DNA of 40,027 nucleotides from a virus. A program made the position numbers and the translations under genes. The stretch lies in the IMG/VR virus record IMGVR_UViG_3300045988_104662; one strand, given 5' to 3'. Positions 11,310 to 40,027 of the stretch are shown in pieces; position 1 is the first letter of the stretch; the number at the start of each line of letters is the position of its first letter. Below the pieces are notes generated by a model. The model was not told where the DNA came from. It was given only the letters and a program-made list of their open reading frames with translations, and searched no databases.

Positions 11310-12077
11310 ATGAGAGACATTGAGACGCCATGCCCGAACTGCGGCAATCCAACCATGGCAGGGTGGTCCATCTGCCAATCCTGTCTGCGCCGGTATATCG
11401 AGGACATCGGCTCGCTGGCCCACGTGATTCCGGCACTCCGCGCGCTGGCCGACAGGACCGCCCGCATCGGCGGCCGCTCGCACGCACCGTCGCGCGGAGT
11501 CGCGCCACTGCCCATCAGCACCCACTGGCAGGAGCAGTGGGAGCGTGCCTCGCGCCTCATGCTCGACATCGCCTCCACCATCGACATCCGCTACGGCCTG
11601 CTCAGGACGGAATCATGGCGCAAGGCATGGCGCAAGGCCATCTCGAACCGCAACAGCCTGGCGGCCAGCGACAGGACGCCGGACCTCATGCTCGACCTGC
11701 ACGCCACGCTCATCGACCTTGACGGCATGATGCGCGAGCGTGATCCCCGCGTGACCGTGGTCTCCTGTACGGAGTGCGGTCAGCGGATAGCGGCCCCGTT
11801 CGGCATGAGGGCCGGTGATTGTCCGTCCTGTGGCGTGCGCTTGGATTTGGAGGCGTTGGTCGCGGAGCATGAGCGGGACGCGCGTTCGCGCACCGTGGAT
11901 GGCAGTCCTGCCGAGTTGGCGTCGTGGTTTTCCAATGTCATCGGCCGGCGTGTGTCTCGCAAGCAGGTCGAGTGGCTGTTGCGGTCGGGAAGGCTGCATG
12001 GCTGCGAGCGCCTTGGCTCGGGCAGGTGGCGTGTGACGGCGGGTGAGTTGCTTGATGCGTCGTCGCACGTCGGCTGA
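11310..12077 (+). CDS. Zn-ribbon / DNA-binding protein, candidate late-gene regulator
   Basis: 255 aa with a GAAGGAAG RBS. CPNC...CQSC and CTEC...CPSC pairs. It is the last gene before the packaging module. Confidence 0.45.
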   Translation: MRDIETPCPNCGNPTMAGWSICQSCLRRYIEDIGSLAHVIPALRALADRTARIGGRSHAPSRGVAPLPISTHWQEQWERASRLMLDIASTIDIRYGLLRTESWRKAWRKAISNRNSLAASDRTPDLMLDLHATLIDLDGMMRERDPRVTVVSCTECGQRIAAPFGMRAGDCPSCGVRLDLEALVAEHERDARSRTVDGSPAELASWFSNVIGRRVSRKQVEWLLRSGRLHGCERLGSGRWRVTAGELLDASSHVG

Positions 12078-12217
12078 CGCGACACGCCGAACATTTGTTC
12101 GATGTCCGCTCGCCGTTTAATGTGTATGATGAGCGCGAATTGTGGGTGGCCACTGGTTGCCTTGTTCGTGTCTTTTCGTGATTGGAGGCCATCTGGCGTT
12201 TGCCGGATGGCCTTCGT

Positions 12218-12362
12218 GCTTCGGTAGGCTCAGCGGTAGAGCTGTGGGACGGCACGGATTCCAATGAGTGGACCACTAACCGGTCATGGTTTCCTTTTCT
12301 CAATTGCCCGTCAACGATATGTGCCGTCCCGTGTGTCGCTGGTTCGACTCCAGCCCGAAGCG
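12218..12362 (+). ncRNA. tRNA-like element with acceptor stem, D-arm and T-arm, but a ~94-nt insert where the anticodon arm should be
   Basis: Acceptor gcttcgg (12218-24) pairs with ccgaagc (12355-61). D-arm gctc-agcggta-gagc at 12228-42. T-arm gctgg-ttcgact-ccagc at 12338-54. A 10-bp helix, gggacggcac (12246-55) with gtgccgtccc (12321-30), encloses 65 nt. No 7-nt anticodon loop was found by eye, and there is no encoded CCA. Confidence 0.4.
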
Positions 12363-12393
12363 CTATACACCTCTCTGTCGATGGGGGATTGCG

Positions 12394-12786
12394 ATGTACA
12401 AGGTATGCTCCACCTCCGGCTGCCCGCACCTGGTCTCCTCCGGCTCCCTGTGCGACGAGTGCAGGAAAGCCAAGGACAAGCGCCGCTCGCGCGGCCGCAA
12501 TCCATACACCTCGCCAGCCCACAGGCTCGCACGGGCCCGTGTGCTGGCGAGGGATCCGCGATGCGTCTGCCCAGGCGACGGACATGACGGATGCGGCAGG
12601 CACCATGGCCTGTGCGGCGCCCCCAGCACCATCGCCGACCATTGGCCGCTTGAACGCGTCGAGCTCGTCGAAGCCGGACTGGACCCAAACGATCCGGCAC
12701 GCATGCGCGGCCTGTGCAAGCGTTGCCACGACAGCAAGACCGCGAGAACGAAACCTTCAGGCTTCAACGGTCGAAGCCTTCGCTGA
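12394..12786 (+). CDS. HNH endonuclease (packaging-associated)
   Basis: 130 aa with a GGGGA RBS. Cys/His motifs (CDEC ... HH ... ADHWPL ... CKRCHDSKT). It lies immediately upstream of terS, as in cos-type phages. Confidence 0.8.
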   Translation: MYKVCSTSGCPHLVSSGSLCDECRKAKDKRRSRGRNPYTSPAHRLARARVLARDPRCVCPGDGHDGCGRHHGLCGAPSTIADHWPLERVELVEAGLDPNDPARMRGLCKRCHDSKTARTKPSGFNGRSLR

Positions 12787-13132
12787 TTCATCTCATCTGC
12801 TGCACGCATGCGGTACGTCGAGCCAAGCCGACGACGTCCGGCGCGCGCCGCAAGCGTGAGGCGAAGCGGAAAACAAAAAGCGATCAAGTCCTTTTCAATT
12901 CGGTTCGCCGCTCGGCGCGAAGACGAACGTGCAGTATTGGAAAACGTTGGAAAATCAACGAAAACAAACCATCGAAACACCCACGGGGGTACCCCTAACG
13001 GTTTGAGTGGCGGAACCGCCGGAGAGCTGTCTCCGAGGTGCGGAGGGTTCAAAAGTTTCAGAGGGGGCGGGCGAAAGGCCCGGCCGCCGACAGCGAAGGA
13101 ACGGCGCGAGGCCGTCCGACGATGGAGGAGAC

Positions 13133-13684
13133 ATGCCAAGAGGAGGAAAACGCGTCAGATCCGGTCCGATGCCGGATCCGTCGAGCGGTGCGAGCGAACG
13201 CAGGGGATACACGCTGCGCAGTCTGCCGAACACGGAATACAAGGGCCGGCCGCCGAAGTTTCCGCTGCCGCCTTACGTGATCCGCTATTTCGACAAGGAC
13301 TCGCAGGAATGGGTCGAGGACAGGGCCGGTTCGGAATCGTGGAATGACCGGGAGGCCGAACTGTGGAGGCAGTTGTGGCGTCTGCCGCAGGCGCGCGCGT
13401 GGAAACAGCCGCAGCTGAAGTATCTGCATTACCAGATCGCCTCGTATGTCCGCGAATGCGTGGTGTGCGAGAGCCCGTCGGCCAAGGCGGCCGACGTGGC
13501 CGTGAAGATCAGGCTCGAGGACCGGATAGGCCTGTCCGAGGCTGGATTGCAGGCGCTCGGCTGGAAGATCTCCGAGGACAACGTCGACATGGCCGCCCAC
13601 GAGGTGCCCGCCACGGACGCGGAGGCGTCCGAGAGCGGCATGGACACCAAGATCGTCCAGTTCCCACGACGCCTGAGGGCGTGA
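13133..13684 (+). CDS. terS: Terminase small subunit
   Basis: 183 aa with a GGAGGAG RBS. The N-terminus is basic (MPRGGKRVRSGPMPDP). It lies directly upstream of terL. Confidence 0.7.
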   Translation: MPRGGKRVRSGPMPDPSSGASERRGYTLRSLPNTEYKGRPPKFPLPPYVIRYFDKDSQEWVEDRAGSESWNDREAELWRQLWRLPQARAWKQPQLKYLHYQIASYVRECVVCESPSAKAADVAVKIRLEDRIGLSEAGLQALGWKISEDNVDMAAHEVPATDAEASESGMDTKIVQFPRRLRA

Positions 13685-13685
13685 C

Positions 13686-14804
13686 ATGGCCGACGACTGG
13701 ATCATCGACTTCCCGACGCTCGCAGACCTGCAGGATGCGTGGGTTCGGCGTCACGTGCGCCAGCCGGACGGTATTCTCCGCGGCAAGCCCTTCTGCTGGT
13801 CAGATTGGCAGTTCTGGTACGCCGCACACCGCTGGAGGGTGCGCGAGGACGCGGAATTCATCCCGCCCGAAGAGGTCACGGTGGACAATCCACTGGTTCT
13901 CAACCAGGCCTTCCAATATCGTCTGACCGGCTGCATTGGCCCGCAGAAGACAGGCAAGGGACCGACCGAGGCCTCATGCGCGATACTCGAGGCCTGCGGT
14001 CCGGTCGTGTTCGCCGGTTGGGCGAAGCCCGGCGACGTGTACCGATGCTCCGACAACGGCTGCCCCTGCGGATGGGTCTACCACTACAATCCGGGCGAGC
14101 CGAAAGGCATGCGTCATCCTTCGCCACTCATCCAGCTGACCGCGAACTCCGAGGACCAGGTGCGCAACGCCTACCGTCCACTCGTCGCGATGATCCGGCT
14201 CGGCCCGTTGAAGCAGCTGCTCAAGGTGCGCGAGGGCTTCATCCGCATCCTGCGCCCCGGAATCAACTTGGACGATGACGATCTCGACCTTGACCGCATC
14301 GATGTGGTGACCGCATCGGCCACCAGCCGTCTGGGCAACCCGATCAGCGATGCCGAACAGGACGAGGCCGGCCTGTACACCAAGTCGAACGGCATGCTCG
14401 ACGTGGCCGACACCCAACGCCGCGGCGCCGCCGGCATGGGCGGCAGAACGCACTTCTGGACCAACGCCTACGACCCCGGCGAAAATTCCTATGCCCAACA
14501 GCAATTCGAGACATCGGCATCGGATGTGTGGATCTTCTACCGCAACCCCGACCTCAACCCGGACCTGCGCCACAAGGACGGTACGCCATACAGCTTCAAC
14601 AACCGGCGCGAACGCCGCAAGATCCTCGAATGGGTGTACGCCGGCAGCCCCTGGGTGCCCTTGGATTCCGTCGAGGCGGAGGCCGAGGCCCTCATGGAGA
14701 AGGATCCCGCGCAGGCGGAACGCTTCTTTGGCAACCGCATGGTGCAGGGCGGCGGCGCATGGCTCGAGGACGGACTATGGGAGAGCTGCTATGCGGGACA
14801 ATAG
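13686..14804 (+). CDS. terL: Terminase large subunit, N-terminal ATPase fragment
   Basis: 372 aa. Walker A-like GPQKTGKG and Walker B-like AEQDEAG. It ends at a TAG after ...FFGNRMVQGGGAWLEDGLWESCYAGQ, before any nuclease motif. Confidence 0.8.
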   Translation: MADDWIIDFPTLADLQDAWVRRHVRQPDGILRGKPFCWSDWQFWYAAHRWRVREDAEFIPPEEVTVDNPLVLNQAFQYRLTGCIGPQKTGKGPTEASCAILEACGPVVFAGWAKPGDVYRCSDNGCPCGWVYHYNPGEPKGMRHPSPLIQLTANSEDQVRNAYRPLVAMIRLGPLKQLLKVREGFIRILRPGINLDDDDLDLDRIDVVTASATSRLGNPISDAEQDEAGLYTKSNGMLDVADTQRRGAAGMGGRTHFWTNAYDPGENSYAQQQFETSASDVWIFYRNPDLNPDLRHKDGTPYSFNNRRERRKILEWVYAGSPWVPLDSVEAEAEALMEKDPAQAERFFGNRMVQGGGAWLEDGLWESCYAGQ

Positions 14805-14823
14805 ACCACTCAACAAATCAAGG

Positions 14824-15535
14824 ATGCGGACGATGAGGCAATACAATCTTCCGCTGCTGCAAAAGGTGCGGACAGTTGGCCGATACGACATGCCAATGCT
14901 TGCAAAACAGGACGTCACCCCCCCCTGACACGTTGATAGGCTTCAATTACGCGACCGGCAAAAAGACAGTCAAGCATTGCGGAATCCATTTCTTCATCGA
15001 TGACTACCAGTTCCAGAGAGTCTGGAACCAGCCGGACAGATACATCGCACCGCTCAAACGCTTCCAGTGCGTGCTGACACCTGATTTCAGCACATACATG
15101 GACATGCCGGAAGCGATGAAGATCTATAACGTCTTCCGAAGCCGTCTGATCGGAGCATACTGGCAGGCCTGCGGACTGAAAGTCATCCCAACACTTCAAT
15201 GGGCGGGCCCAGAGTCATTCCCGTACTGCTTTTCAGGCATTCCAAACAACTCCACCGTCGCGGTAAGCACGGTCGGAACGAACGACAATCCGACGGCAGA
15301 ACTCTATTGGCGGCTCGGCATGCGATACGCGATCGACAGGCTCGCACCGGAAAAGATTCTCCTCTACGGAGATGCCATTCCGTTTTTCGACTTCAGTGGC
15401 ATCGAAGTGGTCACATACAAAAACAGCAATGCGGAAAGGATGAAAAAATGGGCGGAAGAGGATCAAGCTCAGGCGCAGGACGTGGCGGACATGGCGGCGG
15501 AGGGGGAGGCTCTTCCTCTGACCTTTCATCCGTAA
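14824..15535 (+). pseudogene. DUF4417-like gene, split across two frames at a C8 tract
   Basis: Frame A (MRTMRQYNLPLLQKVRTVGRYDMPMLAKQDVTPP*) stops at 14926-28. Frame B continues with DTLIGFNYATGKKTVKHCGIHFFIDDYQF...LTPDFSTY...VIPTLQW. A run of 8 C at 14918-14925 sits at the junction, and one C fewer would fuse the two frames. Confidence 0.5.
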
Positions 15536-15903
15536 GCGACACGGATCTCACCAAGATGATGCGCGACGCGGGAAACCGCATGGACACCGCATCGGAAATC
15601 ATGCAGAGAACCGCGCACGGAGCCACGCAATACAACCAGCGCATGCCGGAAAGCGTCTTTCCAGAGGCAACCAAGGCGAACTACGACAAATACCGGGCAG
15701 CCTCCAAGGCATTCCGCACCGCCAGGGCACAGCGCGACAGAATCTCCGACGAACAGATCCGACGCCAACCAAAATCAAGCGGCACAAGCCACGCATTCGT
15801 CAATTCCTTCGGCGAAGCGACAACAAGGGAGATCACAAACCAGAACTACCAGCGCTCGCAGAAGAGTTTGTCAAAATCGGTCTTGAGGAACATGGGATAT
15901 TAG
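15448..15903 (+). CDS. Gly-rich N-terminus hypothetical protein inside the terL insertion
   Basis: 151 aa with a GGAAAGGA RBS. Begins MGGRGSSSGAGRGGHGGGGGGSS. C-terminal segment FVNSFGEATTREITNQNYQRSQKSL. Confidence 0.5.
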   Translation: MGGRGSSSGAGRGGHGGGGGGSSSDLSSVSDTDLTKMMRDAGNRMDTASEIMQRTAHGATQYNQRMPESVFPEATKANYDKYRAASKAFRTARAQRDRISDEQIRRQPKSSGTSHAFVNSFGEATTREITNQNYQRSQKSLSKSVLRNMGY

Positions 15904-15904
15904 C

Positions 15905-16558
15905 GTGTCCGAGCATGAGCTTTGGCTTGAGAACCCGTCGAAGGGCACCGAGGTGTGCCTCGGCTTCGACGGTTCCGAGAACGACGACTGGACATGCATC
16001 AAGGCCGAAACACGCGAGGGCTTCATCTTCACTCCGCGCTACGGCGAGGACCGGCGTCCCACCATCTGGAACCCGAAGACATGGGGCGGTCGAATCCCGC
16101 GCAGCGAGGTCAACGCCGCCATGGACGAGCTCAACGACCGGTACAAGATCGTGCGCGCCTACTGCGACCCCGGATTCCGCGACGAGGTGTCGTGGGAGTC
16201 GCAGATCGAGGCATGGGACTCCCAATACGGGCCGAAGAAGTACATTCCCTGGTCGATGAGCGGCTCCAGCCGCATCACCGCCGTCTGGGAGGCATTGAAA
16301 CGCTTCGAATCCGACCTCGAGCACCACGCCATCACCCAGGATGGCTGTCCGATCACCATCACGCACATGCGCAACGCAAGACGCTTCGCCAAGTCCGGCG
16401 AACGGTACGGGCTCGGCAAGCCAAAACAGACAAGGAAAATCGACGCGGCGGTCACCAGCGTGCTCGCACATGAGGCGGCATGCGACGCGCGCGCCGCCGG
16501 CTGGGGCAGGAAACGCAAGGCCTACCTGCTGACCGGCTCGACAACAAGGGGATTCTGA
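15905..16558 (+). CDS. terL: Terminase large subunit, C-terminal RNase H-like nuclease fragment
   Basis: 217 aa with a GTG start one base after the preceding TAG. Motifs LGFDGSENDDWT, RAYCDPGF, KIDAAVTSVLAHEAA. Confidence 0.8.
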   Translation: MSEHELWLENPSKGTEVCLGFDGSENDDWTCIKAETREGFIFTPRYGEDRRPTIWNPKTWGGRIPRSEVNAAMDELNDRYKIVRAYCDPGFRDEVSWESQIEAWDSQYGPKKYIPWSMSGSSRITAVWEALKRFESDLEHHAITQDGCPITITHMRNARRFAKSGERYGLGKPKQTRKIDAAVTSVLAHEAACDARAAGWGRKRKAYLLTGSTTRGF

Positions 16559-18079
16559 ATGATTCGCACCGCCGCGGACGTGAACCGTATGGCGAACCTG
16601 CTCGCCATGAAGATAGAGCAGCGACGCTCGGACATTAGGAAGCACACGGACTACGTGCGCGGCAAGCGTGGCACCCTGAAATTCGCGTCCGACGAATTCA
16701 AACGCTACATGTCGGATCGTTTCAGCGGATTCGCCGATAACTGGTGCCTGCCTGTGGCGCAGGCGCCCGTGGAACGCATCCACTTCCGAGGCTTCATCCC
16801 ATACGGCGACGTCGAACTCGACTCGCACGTGATGCGCGTGTGGGAGCGCAACGACTGCGACCGCAAACTGCAGGAGACCGCCCTGATGATGACCGCCACA
16901 GGCAGAGCCTTCGGCCTGGTCACCTCGATGCCGGACGGCAGGGCGCGCATAAGTTTCGAACACCCCGACTCGGCGGCTGTCCACTACGATCCGCTCACCG
17001 GCGAGGTCGACGCCGGCCTCCTGGTCAGATACGACGAGGAGCACGAATTCGGCACGCTGCTGCTGCCCGACGTGGTCTTCGACGTGGTGCGCGTCCGCGC
17101 GGGCGGAGACGACGAACGAGACCGTCTGCCGCCGGGCGTCGAGGGATGGATGTTCCTGCCGGACTCCGCCCGCCCGAACCCGCTCGGCCGCGTCCCACTG
17201 GTCGAATTCCGCAACCAGATGCTCCTGGACAACCTTCCCATCAGCGACGTCGAGCAGGTCGAATCCATGCAGGACGCCGTCAACGTCTGCTGGGCATACA
17301 CCTTGAACGCATTGGACTTCGCGTCCATGCCCGCGAGGGTCATCCTCGGCGGCGACAGCCTGTCCGAACCGGTGTTCGACAAGGCCACCGGAGAGCAGGT
17401 GGGCGAACGTCCCGTGAACCTCGACAAGCAGGTCATGGAGCGCATCATGCAGATCACCGGCGACAACGTGTCGATCGGCGAATGGACGGCAAGCAACCTG
17501 CAGGCCTTCCTTCCGATCATCCAGAAGGCGGTCGAGCACATCGCCGCCGAGACGCGCACGCCAGGCCATTATCTTTTGACGAACGCGGAGGTGCCCGCCA
17601 CCGGCTACGAGGTCGCCGAAGCCGGATTGGTCAGCAAGACGTTGGAGCGCATCAGCTTCATGCGCCAGCCGGTGCGTGAGCTGTGCGAGATGGCCATGAC
17701 GCTCGAGGACGACGAGCAGTCAGCGCGCATCCTCGAGGACTCCAAGGTCGTGTTCGCCACGCCGCAGTACCGCAGCGAGGCCCTCATGGCCGACGCGATG
17801 CTCAAATACAAGCGGCTCGGCTACCCGCTGCAGTGGATCGCCGAACAGATGGGCCAGAGCCCCGAGGACATCAAGCGCATCATGCGCATGATCGACGAGG
17901 AGAACAGCGACCCGGAGATGGCCGAGATAGCGCGAACCCTGCAGGTCGGAGGTGCATCTGATGACGGTGACGATGGACAGCCTGTCGGACAACCGGCACA
18001 CCCTGGCCAGACTATGCCTGCTGGCCGTGAAGGCGGCGGACAAAACATGGAAGGGCGTGGATCCGCGACGGGTGCGTGA
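16559..18079 (+). CDS. Portal protein
   Basis: 506 aa, in the position after terL. It has an acidic/Gly-rich C-terminal tail and a size typical of SPP1-type portals. Confidence 0.8.
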   Translation: MIRTAADVNRMANLLAMKIEQRRSDIRKHTDYVRGKRGTLKFASDEFKRYMSDRFSGFADNWCLPVAQAPVERIHFRGFIPYGDVELDSHVMRVWERNDCDRKLQETALMMTATGRAFGLVTSMPDGRARISFEHPDSAAVHYDPLTGEVDAGLLVRYDEEHEFGTLLLPDVVFDVVRVRAGGDDERDRLPPGVEGWMFLPDSARPNPLGRVPLVEFRNQMLLDNLPISDVEQVESMQDAVNVCWAYTLNALDFASMPARVILGGDSLSEPVFDKATGEQVGERPVNLDKQVMERIMQITGDNVSIGEWTASNLQAFLPIIQKAVEHIAAETRTPGHYLLTNAEVPATGYEVAEAGLVSKTLERISFMRQPVRELCEMAMTLEDDEQSARILEDSKVVFATPQYRSEALMADAMLKYKRLGYPLQWIAEQMGQSPEDIKRIMRMIDEENSDPEMAEIARTLQVGGASDDGDDGQPVGQPAHPGQTMPAGREGGGQNMEGRGSATGA

Positions 18080-39908: not shown

Positions 39909-40027
39909 ATGGTGGTTAACGGGAGCAACTTTCCCATAAAATAAAAACAGGCCATGAAAACGGCTTCATTCCAACGATTTCAAGACATGCATCCACTCTT
40001 TTGAGATGGAAACCTAAAGAAAAAAAG
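39909..40027. repeat. Terminal direct repeat, copy 2 (identical to 1..119)
   Basis: See copy 1. The unique genome length would be 39,908 bp. Confidence 0.9.

Follow-up and report, generated by a model that had tools for sequence, protein, structure and literature searches.

We analyzed a 40,027-nucleotide stretch of viral DNA (IMG/VR record IMGVR_UViG_3300045988_104662; the whole stretch is referred to here as the window) in which the ATPase and nuclease halves of the large terminase subunit (TerL), here TerL-N and TerL-C, are encoded by separate cistrons with foreign-looking DNA between them. The intervening DNA carries two genes, one for a protein of the DUF4417 family and one, referred to here as ORF B (ORF, open reading frame), for a small glycine-rich protein. 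We consider it likely that TerL was naturally bipartite before this insertion, and that a two-gene accessory cassette was recombined between the two cistrons and has spread by homologous recombination in the flanking sequence. What is new here is the cassette found between the TerL cistrons; the split itself is already known. A preliminary description of the locus had delimited both TerL ORFs, including the GTG start of the second, as we find them (Table 1), and had recognized a compositionally foreign insertion of about 1.1 kb with two ORFs exactly at the ATPase/nuclease boundary. Our analysis confirms both of these points. The same description proposed that the insertion had split the gene, which our data contradict.

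Anatomy of the insertion and its empty sites

We found that TerL-N matches the family phrog_19179 end to end (profile positions 4-346 of 347, E=1.7e-172), as TerL-C does the family phrog_21277 (positions 2-206 of 208, E=2.3e-101), and that on the full-length TerL profile phrog_9 the two cover contiguous parts (76-469 and 476-678, respectively). The earlier assignment of the ORFs to the ATPase and the nuclease of TerL, and the statement that these halves are contiguous in the intact protein, both agree with these matches. Walker A (GPQKTGKG), Walker B (DAEQDEAG) and the acidic motifs of the nuclease (GFDGSE, YCDP, KIDAA), all assigned by eye, are conserved in the alignment with relatives. Since Pfam detected neither half and a PDB sequence search returned no true match, the identification of both halves as TerL rests on the PHROG profiles and on annotated homologs. 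The gap between the cistrons (14805..15904) has a GC content of 0.544, compared to 0.642 in TerL-N and 0.633 in TerL-C, and only 0.6% of the 1100-bp windows of this genome have a GC content that low; the gap had been described as AT-rich by eye.

Our search of IMG/VR confirmed 242 relatives, of which 80 loci, mostly 98-100% identical, were kept. Filled and empty sites were compared across the 72 loci with TerL-N at least 98% identical, the window counted in. The insert is present in 36 of these loci and absent from the other 36. Empty loci read ...TGCTATGCAGGA[A]CATGAGCTTTGG... (also written ...GGGAGAGCTGCTATGCAGGA-A-CATGAGCTTTGGCTTGAGAA..., with the central junction ...GCTGCTATGCAGGAACATGAGCTTTGGC...). 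In these alleles TerL-N ends ...CYAGT-TGA and TerL-C starts ATG-CAG-GAA-CAT-GAG (MQEHELW) in the +1 frame, with an overlap of 14 nt between the two cistrons. Filled loci have 1113-1115 nt in place of the single A of the empty site. This replacement gives TerL-N a new last sense codon and stop (CAA TAG) and gives TerL-C a new start plus two codons (GTG TCC GAG), the GTG lying 1 nt after the stop of ORF B (TAG-C-GTG). Two cassette variants were found at the start of TerL-C, TAG-C-GTG-TCC-GAG, as in the window, and TAG-C-ATG-TCC-GAG; since both carry a start codon there, a start is maintained at that position.

A further 35 contigs, which derive from over 10 metagenomes and one metagenome-assembled genome (MAG), contain the same two junctions, and this rules out the misassembly at 14.8 or 15.9 kb against which the preliminary description had cautioned. 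Around the insert we found no terminal inverted repeats and no direct repeats or target duplication, only short chance repeats. A transposon or insertion sequence was rejected because bracketing repeats are lacking and Pfam and PHROG searches revealed no transposase domain. The L-W-(L)-E motifs at both edges, taken earlier as a hint of a duplicated junction, are real, but they also occur in the empty alleles and in Gordonia and Arthrobacter phages, and they are therefore conserved parts of each half and not a duplication made by the insertion. These comparisons indicate that the insertion is real and precise, but that it did not split the enzyme.

The terminase was bipartite before the insertion

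Distant blastn matches in GenBank phages were to Gordonia phage Nyceirae and its relatives and to Arthrobacter phages such as Auxilium and Richie, and the match spans two adjacent genes, annotated as 'terminase large subunit, ATPase domain' and 'terminase large subunit, nuclease domain'. TerL-N is 54-55% identical to the ATPase-domain genes of Nyceirae and Auxilium by tblastn (58-60% by local alignment), and TerL-C is 51% identical to their nuclease halves (54% by local alignment). In a protein alignment of the window with Nyceirae gp5/gp6 and Auxilium gp2/gp3, the break falls at the same column, with the pattern ...WLEDGLWExxYAGx and a stop on the N side and M...WLxNPxxGTxxCxGFDGSE on the C side. 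The N half ends ...GAWLEDGLWESCYAGQ and a stop in the window, ...GAWLEDGLWERAYAGA and a stop in Nyceirae, and ...GTWLRDGLWEGAYAGR... in Auxilium; the C half starts MSEHELWLENPSKGTEVCLGFDGSE, MHMPAREMRWLPNPPRGTQICAGFDGSE and MQDVWLPNPPDGTAICLGFDGSE, respectively. Split members all end ...W-E-x-x-Y-A-G-x, followed by the stop, and restart M-...-W-L-x-N-P.

Reading frames were checked in 54 further loci. Every Bifidobacterium prophage of the clade (72-100% identity), as well as Nyceirae and Auxilium, has a split TerL whose C half lies in the +1 frame. TerL is split in this way also in two Actinomyces/Actinomycetaceae loci, of which the Actinomyces one lies on a short contig and has an unclear C-half start. 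Beyond the near-identical loci, all split relatives are free of the insert, namely Bifidobacterium prophages at 72-74% identity, the Actinomycetaceae prophage, Nyceirae and Auxilium. Adjacent and overlapping cistrons with the C half in the +1 frame are present in the 36 insert-free sister alleles and absent from the window, where 1100 nt lie between the halves. In the loci inspected in detail, the start codon of the C half lies within or next to the conserved Y-A-G codons of ...W-E-x-x-Y-A-G, and a Shine-Dalgarno sequence (GGGAG or AAGGAG), provided by the conserved W-E codons, precedes that start. A single intact TerL ORF was found in Microbacterium, Rathayibacter, Streptomyces, Amycolatopsis, Brevibacterium and B. 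adolescentis-type relatives, including Streptomyces phage Dubu and Brevibacterium phage AGM1.

A two-ORF TerL is described as characteristic of most cluster AY Arthrobacter phages (PMC12820723), and our literature search found no study of the mechanism of the two-ORF TerL in actinobacteriophages. Given that insert-free alleles and more distant relatives are broken at the same residue, our data indicate that the split is ancestral; it predates the insertion, is common to a clade of actinobacterial phages and had already been recognized.

The intact enzymes of Microbacterium and Rathayibacter (L010, L011, L016 and L017; two representatives compared) differ in their similarity to split TerL from one half to the other. 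Their N halves are 71-73% identical to the N half of the split Actinomycetaceae locus (L013) and 64-68% identical to Bifidobacterium N halves, while their C halves are only 42-50% identical to any split C half. Such discordant domain histories suggest an exchange or a re-fusion at the ATPase/nuclease boundary in the Microbacterium/Rathayibacter TerL.

Selection on both halves in the presence of the insert

We calculated Nei-Gojobori dN/dS on distinct alleles, of which 22-30 bear the insert. For TerL-N, dN/dS was 0.031 with the insert (dS 0.32) and 0.038 without it (dS 0.34), and for TerL-C the corresponding values were 0.037 (dS 0.37) and 0.032 (dS 0.40). Purifying selection on the TerL halves is equally strong with and without the insert. 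Furthermore, the 1.1 kb between the halves of filled genomes is coding DNA with stops in all frames, which excludes a fusion by frameshifting. Given purifying selection on both halves and no frameshift able to join them, we infer that the terminase of filled phages works as two separate polypeptides. The preliminary description had suggested a functional two-piece terminase made by the insertion; the two-piece enzyme, with both pieces under selection, appears to be correct, but its creation by the insertion does not.

The cassette as a young mobile unit

The two genes of the insert move as a unit. A second copy of the cassette was found in a B. adolescentis-type prophage (L123) at another site, between a gene resembling that of the small terminase subunit (TerS) and an intact TerL of 539 amino acids (aa), which is only about 67% (nucleotide) and about 44% (amino acid) identical to the halves in the window. 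Homology between the two cassettes extends from 3 nt 5' of the first DUF4417 ATG to 6 nt before the stop of ORF B. Within the filled population, dS is 0.10 for DUF4417 and 0.08 for ORF B, values 3-4 times below those of the flanks (0.32-0.40), and dN/dS is 0.23 and 0.13, respectively. Because its dS is that much lower than in the flanking TerL genes, the cassette is evidently younger than its flanks and has spread across diverged TerL backgrounds, with its proteins under constraint.

Single-nucleotide polymorphisms (SNPs) in the flanks are fully associated with the insert at 4 bp (r2=1.0), remain strongly associated (r2 0.8-0.9) 22-28 bp to the left and 45 bp to the right, and are only loosely associated beyond about 100 bp (r2 about 0.2). 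Between the filled and the empty locus that resemble each other most (L085 and L094), the flanks differ at 25 of 1200 positions, and 10 of the 14 differences in the left flank lie within 94 bp of the junction. This pattern fits a transfer of the cassette by homologous recombination with a short co-converted flank.

In the explanation that we favor, the cassette would have recombined into the 14-nt overlap between the TerL cistrons, and the junctions would have been remodeled with nothing lost, TerL-N acquiring a new last codon and stop and TerL-C a new start. The ATPase and nuclease cistrons would be translated separately, and the two polypeptides would assemble in trans. We detected no plus-strand terminator-like site and no sigma-70-like promoter in 12000-17000, so TerL-N, the cassette and TerL-C are presumably read as one operon, and TerL-C would probably be translated by stop-start coupling after ORF B within one transcript. 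From there the cassette would have spread onto diverged TerL backgrounds via homologous recombination in flanking terminase sequence, carrying approximately 100-150 bp of flank with it.

Several points weigh against this explanation. The linkage and co-conversion pattern suits nuclease-driven homing equally well, and homologous recombination by itself leaves the first arrival of the cassette at the junction unexplained, for which an illegitimate event or a nuclease is needed. It is sequence and selection that point to separate translation of the halves and their assembly in trans. In the window, the DUF4417 gene carries a frameshift, which reflects either partial decay of the cassette here or a homopolymer sequencing error. 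Lastly, most loci come from one large metagenome collection (IMG/VR 3300045988), and the 36:36 ratio of filled to empty loci is not a population frequency.

Alternative explanations

The only serious rival concerns the mobility step. In this scenario the cassette would be a homing element of the free-standing kind, in which DUF4417, with or without ORF B, acts as a site-specific nuclease and cuts the empty TerL-N/TerL-C junction during co-infection; repair from the filled genome would copy the cassette together with a short flank. We regard homing as unlikely, albeit well above the other alternatives. It would account for an insert that is either present or absent at one exact point of a conserved region of essential genes, for a putative target that is disrupted by the insertion, and for a cassette that is younger than its flanks. 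The co-conversion-like tract is short (about 100-150 bp), as homing would predict, but general recombination would give the same pattern. The second cassette site also abuts a TerL gene, and DUF4417 has invariant His and Asp residues, as is typical of metal-dependent enzymes. DUF4417 homologs are labeled 'nuclease' in some records and in phrog_940, but these labels apparently derive from a ParB-like domain fused in other proteins. Searches of Pfam, NCBIfam and PDB (sequence and profile) revealed no LAGLIDADG, GIY-YIG, HNH, His-Cys box, PD-(D/E)xK or EDxHD domain, and the confident AlphaFold2 (AF2) model of DUF4417 has no significant nuclease match. Homing genes are usually sporadic in distribution, whereas DUF4417 is conserved in position (385 Mycobacterium phage records match it, and those cluster A genomes that we examined have it as gene 1 or 2). 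DUF4417 is also frameshifted in 6 of the 36 filled loci, the window included.

We consider it very improbable that a once-intact TerL was split by this insertion, as the preliminary description had mainly proposed. The two halves do form one gene in Dubu, AGM1 and the Microbacterium and Streptomyces prophages, and the insert does lie exactly at the domain boundary. The empty-site alleles refute such a split: 36 contigs with TerL-N 98-100% identical to that of the window have a two-gene TerL and no insert, and their break, with its +1 frame offset, lies at the very residue where every other split relative is broken, down to about 55% identity. The cassette is also much younger than the flanking genes (dS 0.09 compared to 0.35).

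Another option raised previously, that the window represents a decaying, inactive prophage with a TerL pseudogene, is just as improbable. The frameshift in the DUF4417 gene of the window would agree with decay, but dN/dS is approximately 0.03 on both TerL halves across the 22-30 distinct filled alleles, the assembly has the look of a circular, complete genome, the organization of the window recurs in dozens of independent contigs about 40 kb long, and the cultured, plaque-forming phages Nyceirae and Auxilium likewise encode TerL in two genes.

In other phages, introns and inteins do occur in terminase genes, but a group I or II intron (a further suggestion of the preliminary description) or an intein whose removal restores a single TerL is hardly credible here, given that 14500-16200 has no Rfam match at E<=1 on either strand, that Pfam revealed no Hint or intein domain, that TerL-N has its own stop (TAG 14802-14804) and TerL-C its own start in another frame, in the empty alleles as well, and that the insert encodes two proteins under purifying selection.

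The two genes of the cassette

The DUF4417 gene matches PF14386 far above the cutoff (E=9.1e-61, 205 bits compared to 28.9), in agreement with the DUF4417-like protein noted in the preliminary description. Its start is an ATG, at either 14825 or 14834, and not the TTG at 14876. The native protein has 236 aa from the first ATG or 233 aa from the second, which gene callers favor (P0092). In the window the gene is in two pieces, a 5' piece (14825-14928) of 34 codons followed by TGA and a remainder in the frame of 14876-15535. An intact ORF of 236 aa, with C7 or CCACCCC at the homopolymer, is found in 29 of the 36 filled loci, the window being counted among the 36; four filled loci have C8 (window included) and two have C6. 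The C8 run could represent real slippage or phase variation, or a homopolymer sequencing error.

Residues H52, D56, D57 and D84 are among those invariant in an alignment of 38 DUF4417 sequences. The AF2 model of DUF4417 has a pLDDT of 90.3 and a pTM of 0.83. Foldseek found no significant match for it in the PDB; the best was an EAL domain-containing protein (E=0.028, TM 0.33), and the other low-scoring matches were alpha/beta-barrel enzymes (PdxJ and transaldolase, TM 0.33-0.37). In a viral library, the matches to DUF4417 relatives were followed by weak ones to models of phage queuine tRNA-ribosyltransferases (E 0.007-0.04, TM 0.41-0.48). A base-exchange or DNA-modification enzyme is a lead given by these models, not a result. 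The PDB sequence search returned only spurious matches to TssM (E about 1), and the PDB profile search and NCBIfam gave no match. The literature mentions DUF4417 only as a domain of unknown function that is enriched in phages and fused there to ParB-CTPase folds (bioRxiv 10.1101/2025.10.10.680097).

ORF B overlaps the 3' end of the DUF4417 gene by 88 nt (15448-15535). The preliminary description had noted a glycine-rich protein here; such an ORF is present, but it does not extend over the whole of 15199..15903. The start of ORF B, MGGRGxSS, is invariant, and its C-terminus is conserved (FVNSFGEAT.R.IT...Y.R.Q.....VLRNMGY). Homologs of ORF B (n=91) are encoded directly 3' of the DUF4417 gene in every context examined, usually overlapping it. 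The AF2 model (pLDDT 78) is a helical hairpin, for which we obtained only generic coiled-coil fold matches, none of them informative. ORF B had no match in Pfam, PHROG or NCBIfam and no tblastn match in GenBank phages.

Fusions of the two genes were also observed. One allele (P0098; 356 aa, 63 member sequences), whose sequence we read, joins DUF4417 and ORF B in frame within the G-rich overlap (15448-15535 in the window) and skips the MGGRG leader, and P0100 (356 aa, 120 members) is probably another such fusion. These fusions could be biological, through slippage or programmed fusion, or a sequencing artifact.

A DUF4417/MGGRG-leader module in other phages

We surveyed 63 diverse DUF4417 loci from IMG/VR, each approximately 50% identical to that of the window. 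In 45 of them, a gene whose product starts with MGG[RK]G begins between -200 and +120 nt from the DUF4417 stop. The MGG[RK]G(A/S)SS gene and the DUF4417 gene usually overlap (loci L150-L213, L133:369-2085, L132:3456-4519, L007:3096-4015 and 14825-15903 of the window). The C-terminal bodies of the MGGRG-leader proteins are of several unrelated sequence types, and most of the full-length ones have 125-259 aa. One of them, mycobacteriophage Gail gp2, encoded 3' of the DUF4417 protein gp1, has the leader MGGRGSAGG, a poly-Gly stretch and a Pfam Gln_amidase (papain-fold toxin 1) domain. Streptococcus phage A25 gp23 (L132:4136-4519) belongs to the same set. The annotated start of gp23 (MSDKGDKYG...) appears to be about 9 codons too short, and the near-identical locus L162 from IMG/VR gives MGGRGASSGMSDKGDKYGTEY... 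from an ATG farther 5', which overlaps the DUF4417 gene.

The position of this pair is similar across phages. A DUF4417 gene with an ORF B homolog lies 5' of the terminase genes in the B. adolescentis-type prophage and in another Caudoviricetes contig, the DUF4417/MGGRG-leader pair lies 5' of the terminase genes in Streptococcus phage A25, and the module is found at the left genome end in cluster A mycobacteriophages. Our comparisons indicate that the window carries a displaced copy of this module, whose normal place is at the head of the packaging operon. Split-TerL prophages of B. parmae and B. pluvialisilvae (L007:3096-3623 and L008:3109-3693) also have a DUF4417 homolog (50-55% identical), located about 1.4-1.9 kb 5' of TerL-N; in the former (L007) the gene after it encodes a protein with an MGGRGSSSG leader, of the 'YGTEY' type.

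By analogy, a constant N-terminal tag with variable cargo resembles the architecture of polymorphic effectors. A tag with interchangeable bodies, among them a glutamine deamidase toxin, is the architecture expected of effectors that are delivered with the virion or coupled to packaging. Our best guess is that the cassette is linked to late expression or packaging as an accessory or effector module, and that the terminase does not need it. We found no description of a DUF4417/MGGRG-leader module in the literature. Only tentatively do we suggest that these loci represent an undescribed phage system in which a DUF4417 enzyme with a new or highly divergent alpha/beta fold acts on or loads MGGRG(A/S)SS-tagged proteins with interchangeable bodies, its placement reflecting a coupling to packaging, or else a new homing element that targets terminase genes.

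Source genome and neighboring genes

The window has an exact direct terminal repeat of 119 bp (positions 1-119 are identical to 39909-40027) and probably represents a complete phage genome (39,908 bp) that was assembled as a circle, not a prophage with host flanks. The source phage is probably a temperate Bifidobacterium siphophage with a complete genome of about 39.9 kb. The nearest genome record is an uncultured Bifidobacterium MAG (TerL-N 99% identical), and a comparison with the literature placed the published inducible Bifidobacterium prophages in a different, phiSASD1-like lineage. The gene order at the locus is putative TerS, TerL-N, insert, TerL-C and portal. The true start of the putative TerS is probably an internal ATG near 13133, and its PHROG match, phrog_226, carries a label different from that of a small terminase subunit. 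Just 5' of the putative TerS, the ORF 12286-12786 encodes a Cys/His-rich protein of 166 aa that is HNH-endonuclease-like by eye only; it had no Pfam or NCBIfam match, and we make no HNH claim for it.

Table 1. Features of the terminase locus, with positions in the window
Feature	Position	Strand	Basis and remarks
Putative small terminase subunit (TerS)	13007..13684	+	34% identity (E=3e-19) to Gordonia phage Nyceirae gp4 'terminase small subunit'; directly 5' of TerL-N
TerL-N, ATPase half of the large terminase, own cistron, 372 aa	13686..14804	+	phrog_19179; ends ...GLWESCYAGQ, stop TAG 14802-14804
Replacement segment	14799..15913	+	Net insertion of 1114 nt for one base, relative to 36 empty-site alleles
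Cassette core, two genes moving as a unit	14822..15897	+	91.8% nucleotide identity to L123 3268-4345
DUF4417 gene, frameshifted in the window	14825..15535	+	PF14386, E=9e-61
C8 homopolymer, +1 frameshift in DUF4417	14918..14925	+	C7 or CCACCCC in intact alleles
ORF B, 151 aa	15448..15903	+	MGGRGSSSG leader, Gly-rich linker, helical hairpin; AAGGA 7 nt 5' of the ATG
TerL-C, RNase-H-like nuclease half, own cistron, 217 aa	15905..16558	+	phrog_21277; GTG start, SEHELWLENPSKGTEVCLGFDGSENDDWT
Portal protein, next gene of the packaging operon	16559..18079	+	PF05133, E=2.4e-12; phrog_104, E=8e-86

Implications and comparison with known systems

The overlapping +1 arrangement of the relatives leaves room for a TerL fused by frameshifting, but the filled genomes do not. 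The filled genomes thus provide natural evidence which argues that ATPase and nuclease polypeptides can build a working packaging motor in trans. A motor of this kind is relevant to models for the positioning and regulation of the TerL nuclease, and it may be relevant to host sensors that recognize TerL. The filled/empty polymorphism is a clean system in which passive movement of DUF4417 cassettes could be distinguished from nuclease-driven homing. Furthermore, the apparent occurrence of the DUF4417/MGGRG-leader module at the head of the packaging operon in many Gram-positive phages offers an entry point to the function of DUF4417, and we regard this module as the most interesting loose end. 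Apart from these points, the locus is ordinary phage mosaicism.

Four known systems are comparable to the locus. Phages with a two-ORF TerL (Nyceirae, Auxilium and cluster AY; PHROGs 19179 and 21277) have homologous halves broken at the same column, and the operon order TerS, TerL-N, TerL-C, portal is common to the window and to Nyceirae and Auxilium; their cistrons, however, overlap by 14-35 nt in the +1 frame, whereas those of the window are 1.1 kb apart. Like phage morons and mosaic cassettes, the cassette is bounded by the start of its first gene and the stop of its last, is atypical in composition and occurs in unrelated phage backbones; unlike morons, it has no detected promoter or terminator of its own and sits inside the two-cistron unit of an essential enzyme. 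Like free-standing homing genes of the T4 seg/mob type, it is optional, occupies an exact position between genes of a conserved region, is present in some genomes and absent from others, and has short co-conversion-like flanks, but DUF4417 has no recognized endonuclease domain or fold, is syntenically conserved in many phage groups, and any cleavage by it is putative. DUF4417 proteins elsewhere also include stand-alone forms, such as Streptococcus phage A25 gp22 and mycobacteriophage gene 1. The protein in the window is likewise of the stand-alone form, without the ParB-CTPase-fold domain to which DUF4417 is often fused in phages; its gene, however, is frameshifted and lies between the terminase halves and not 5' of the terminase genes.

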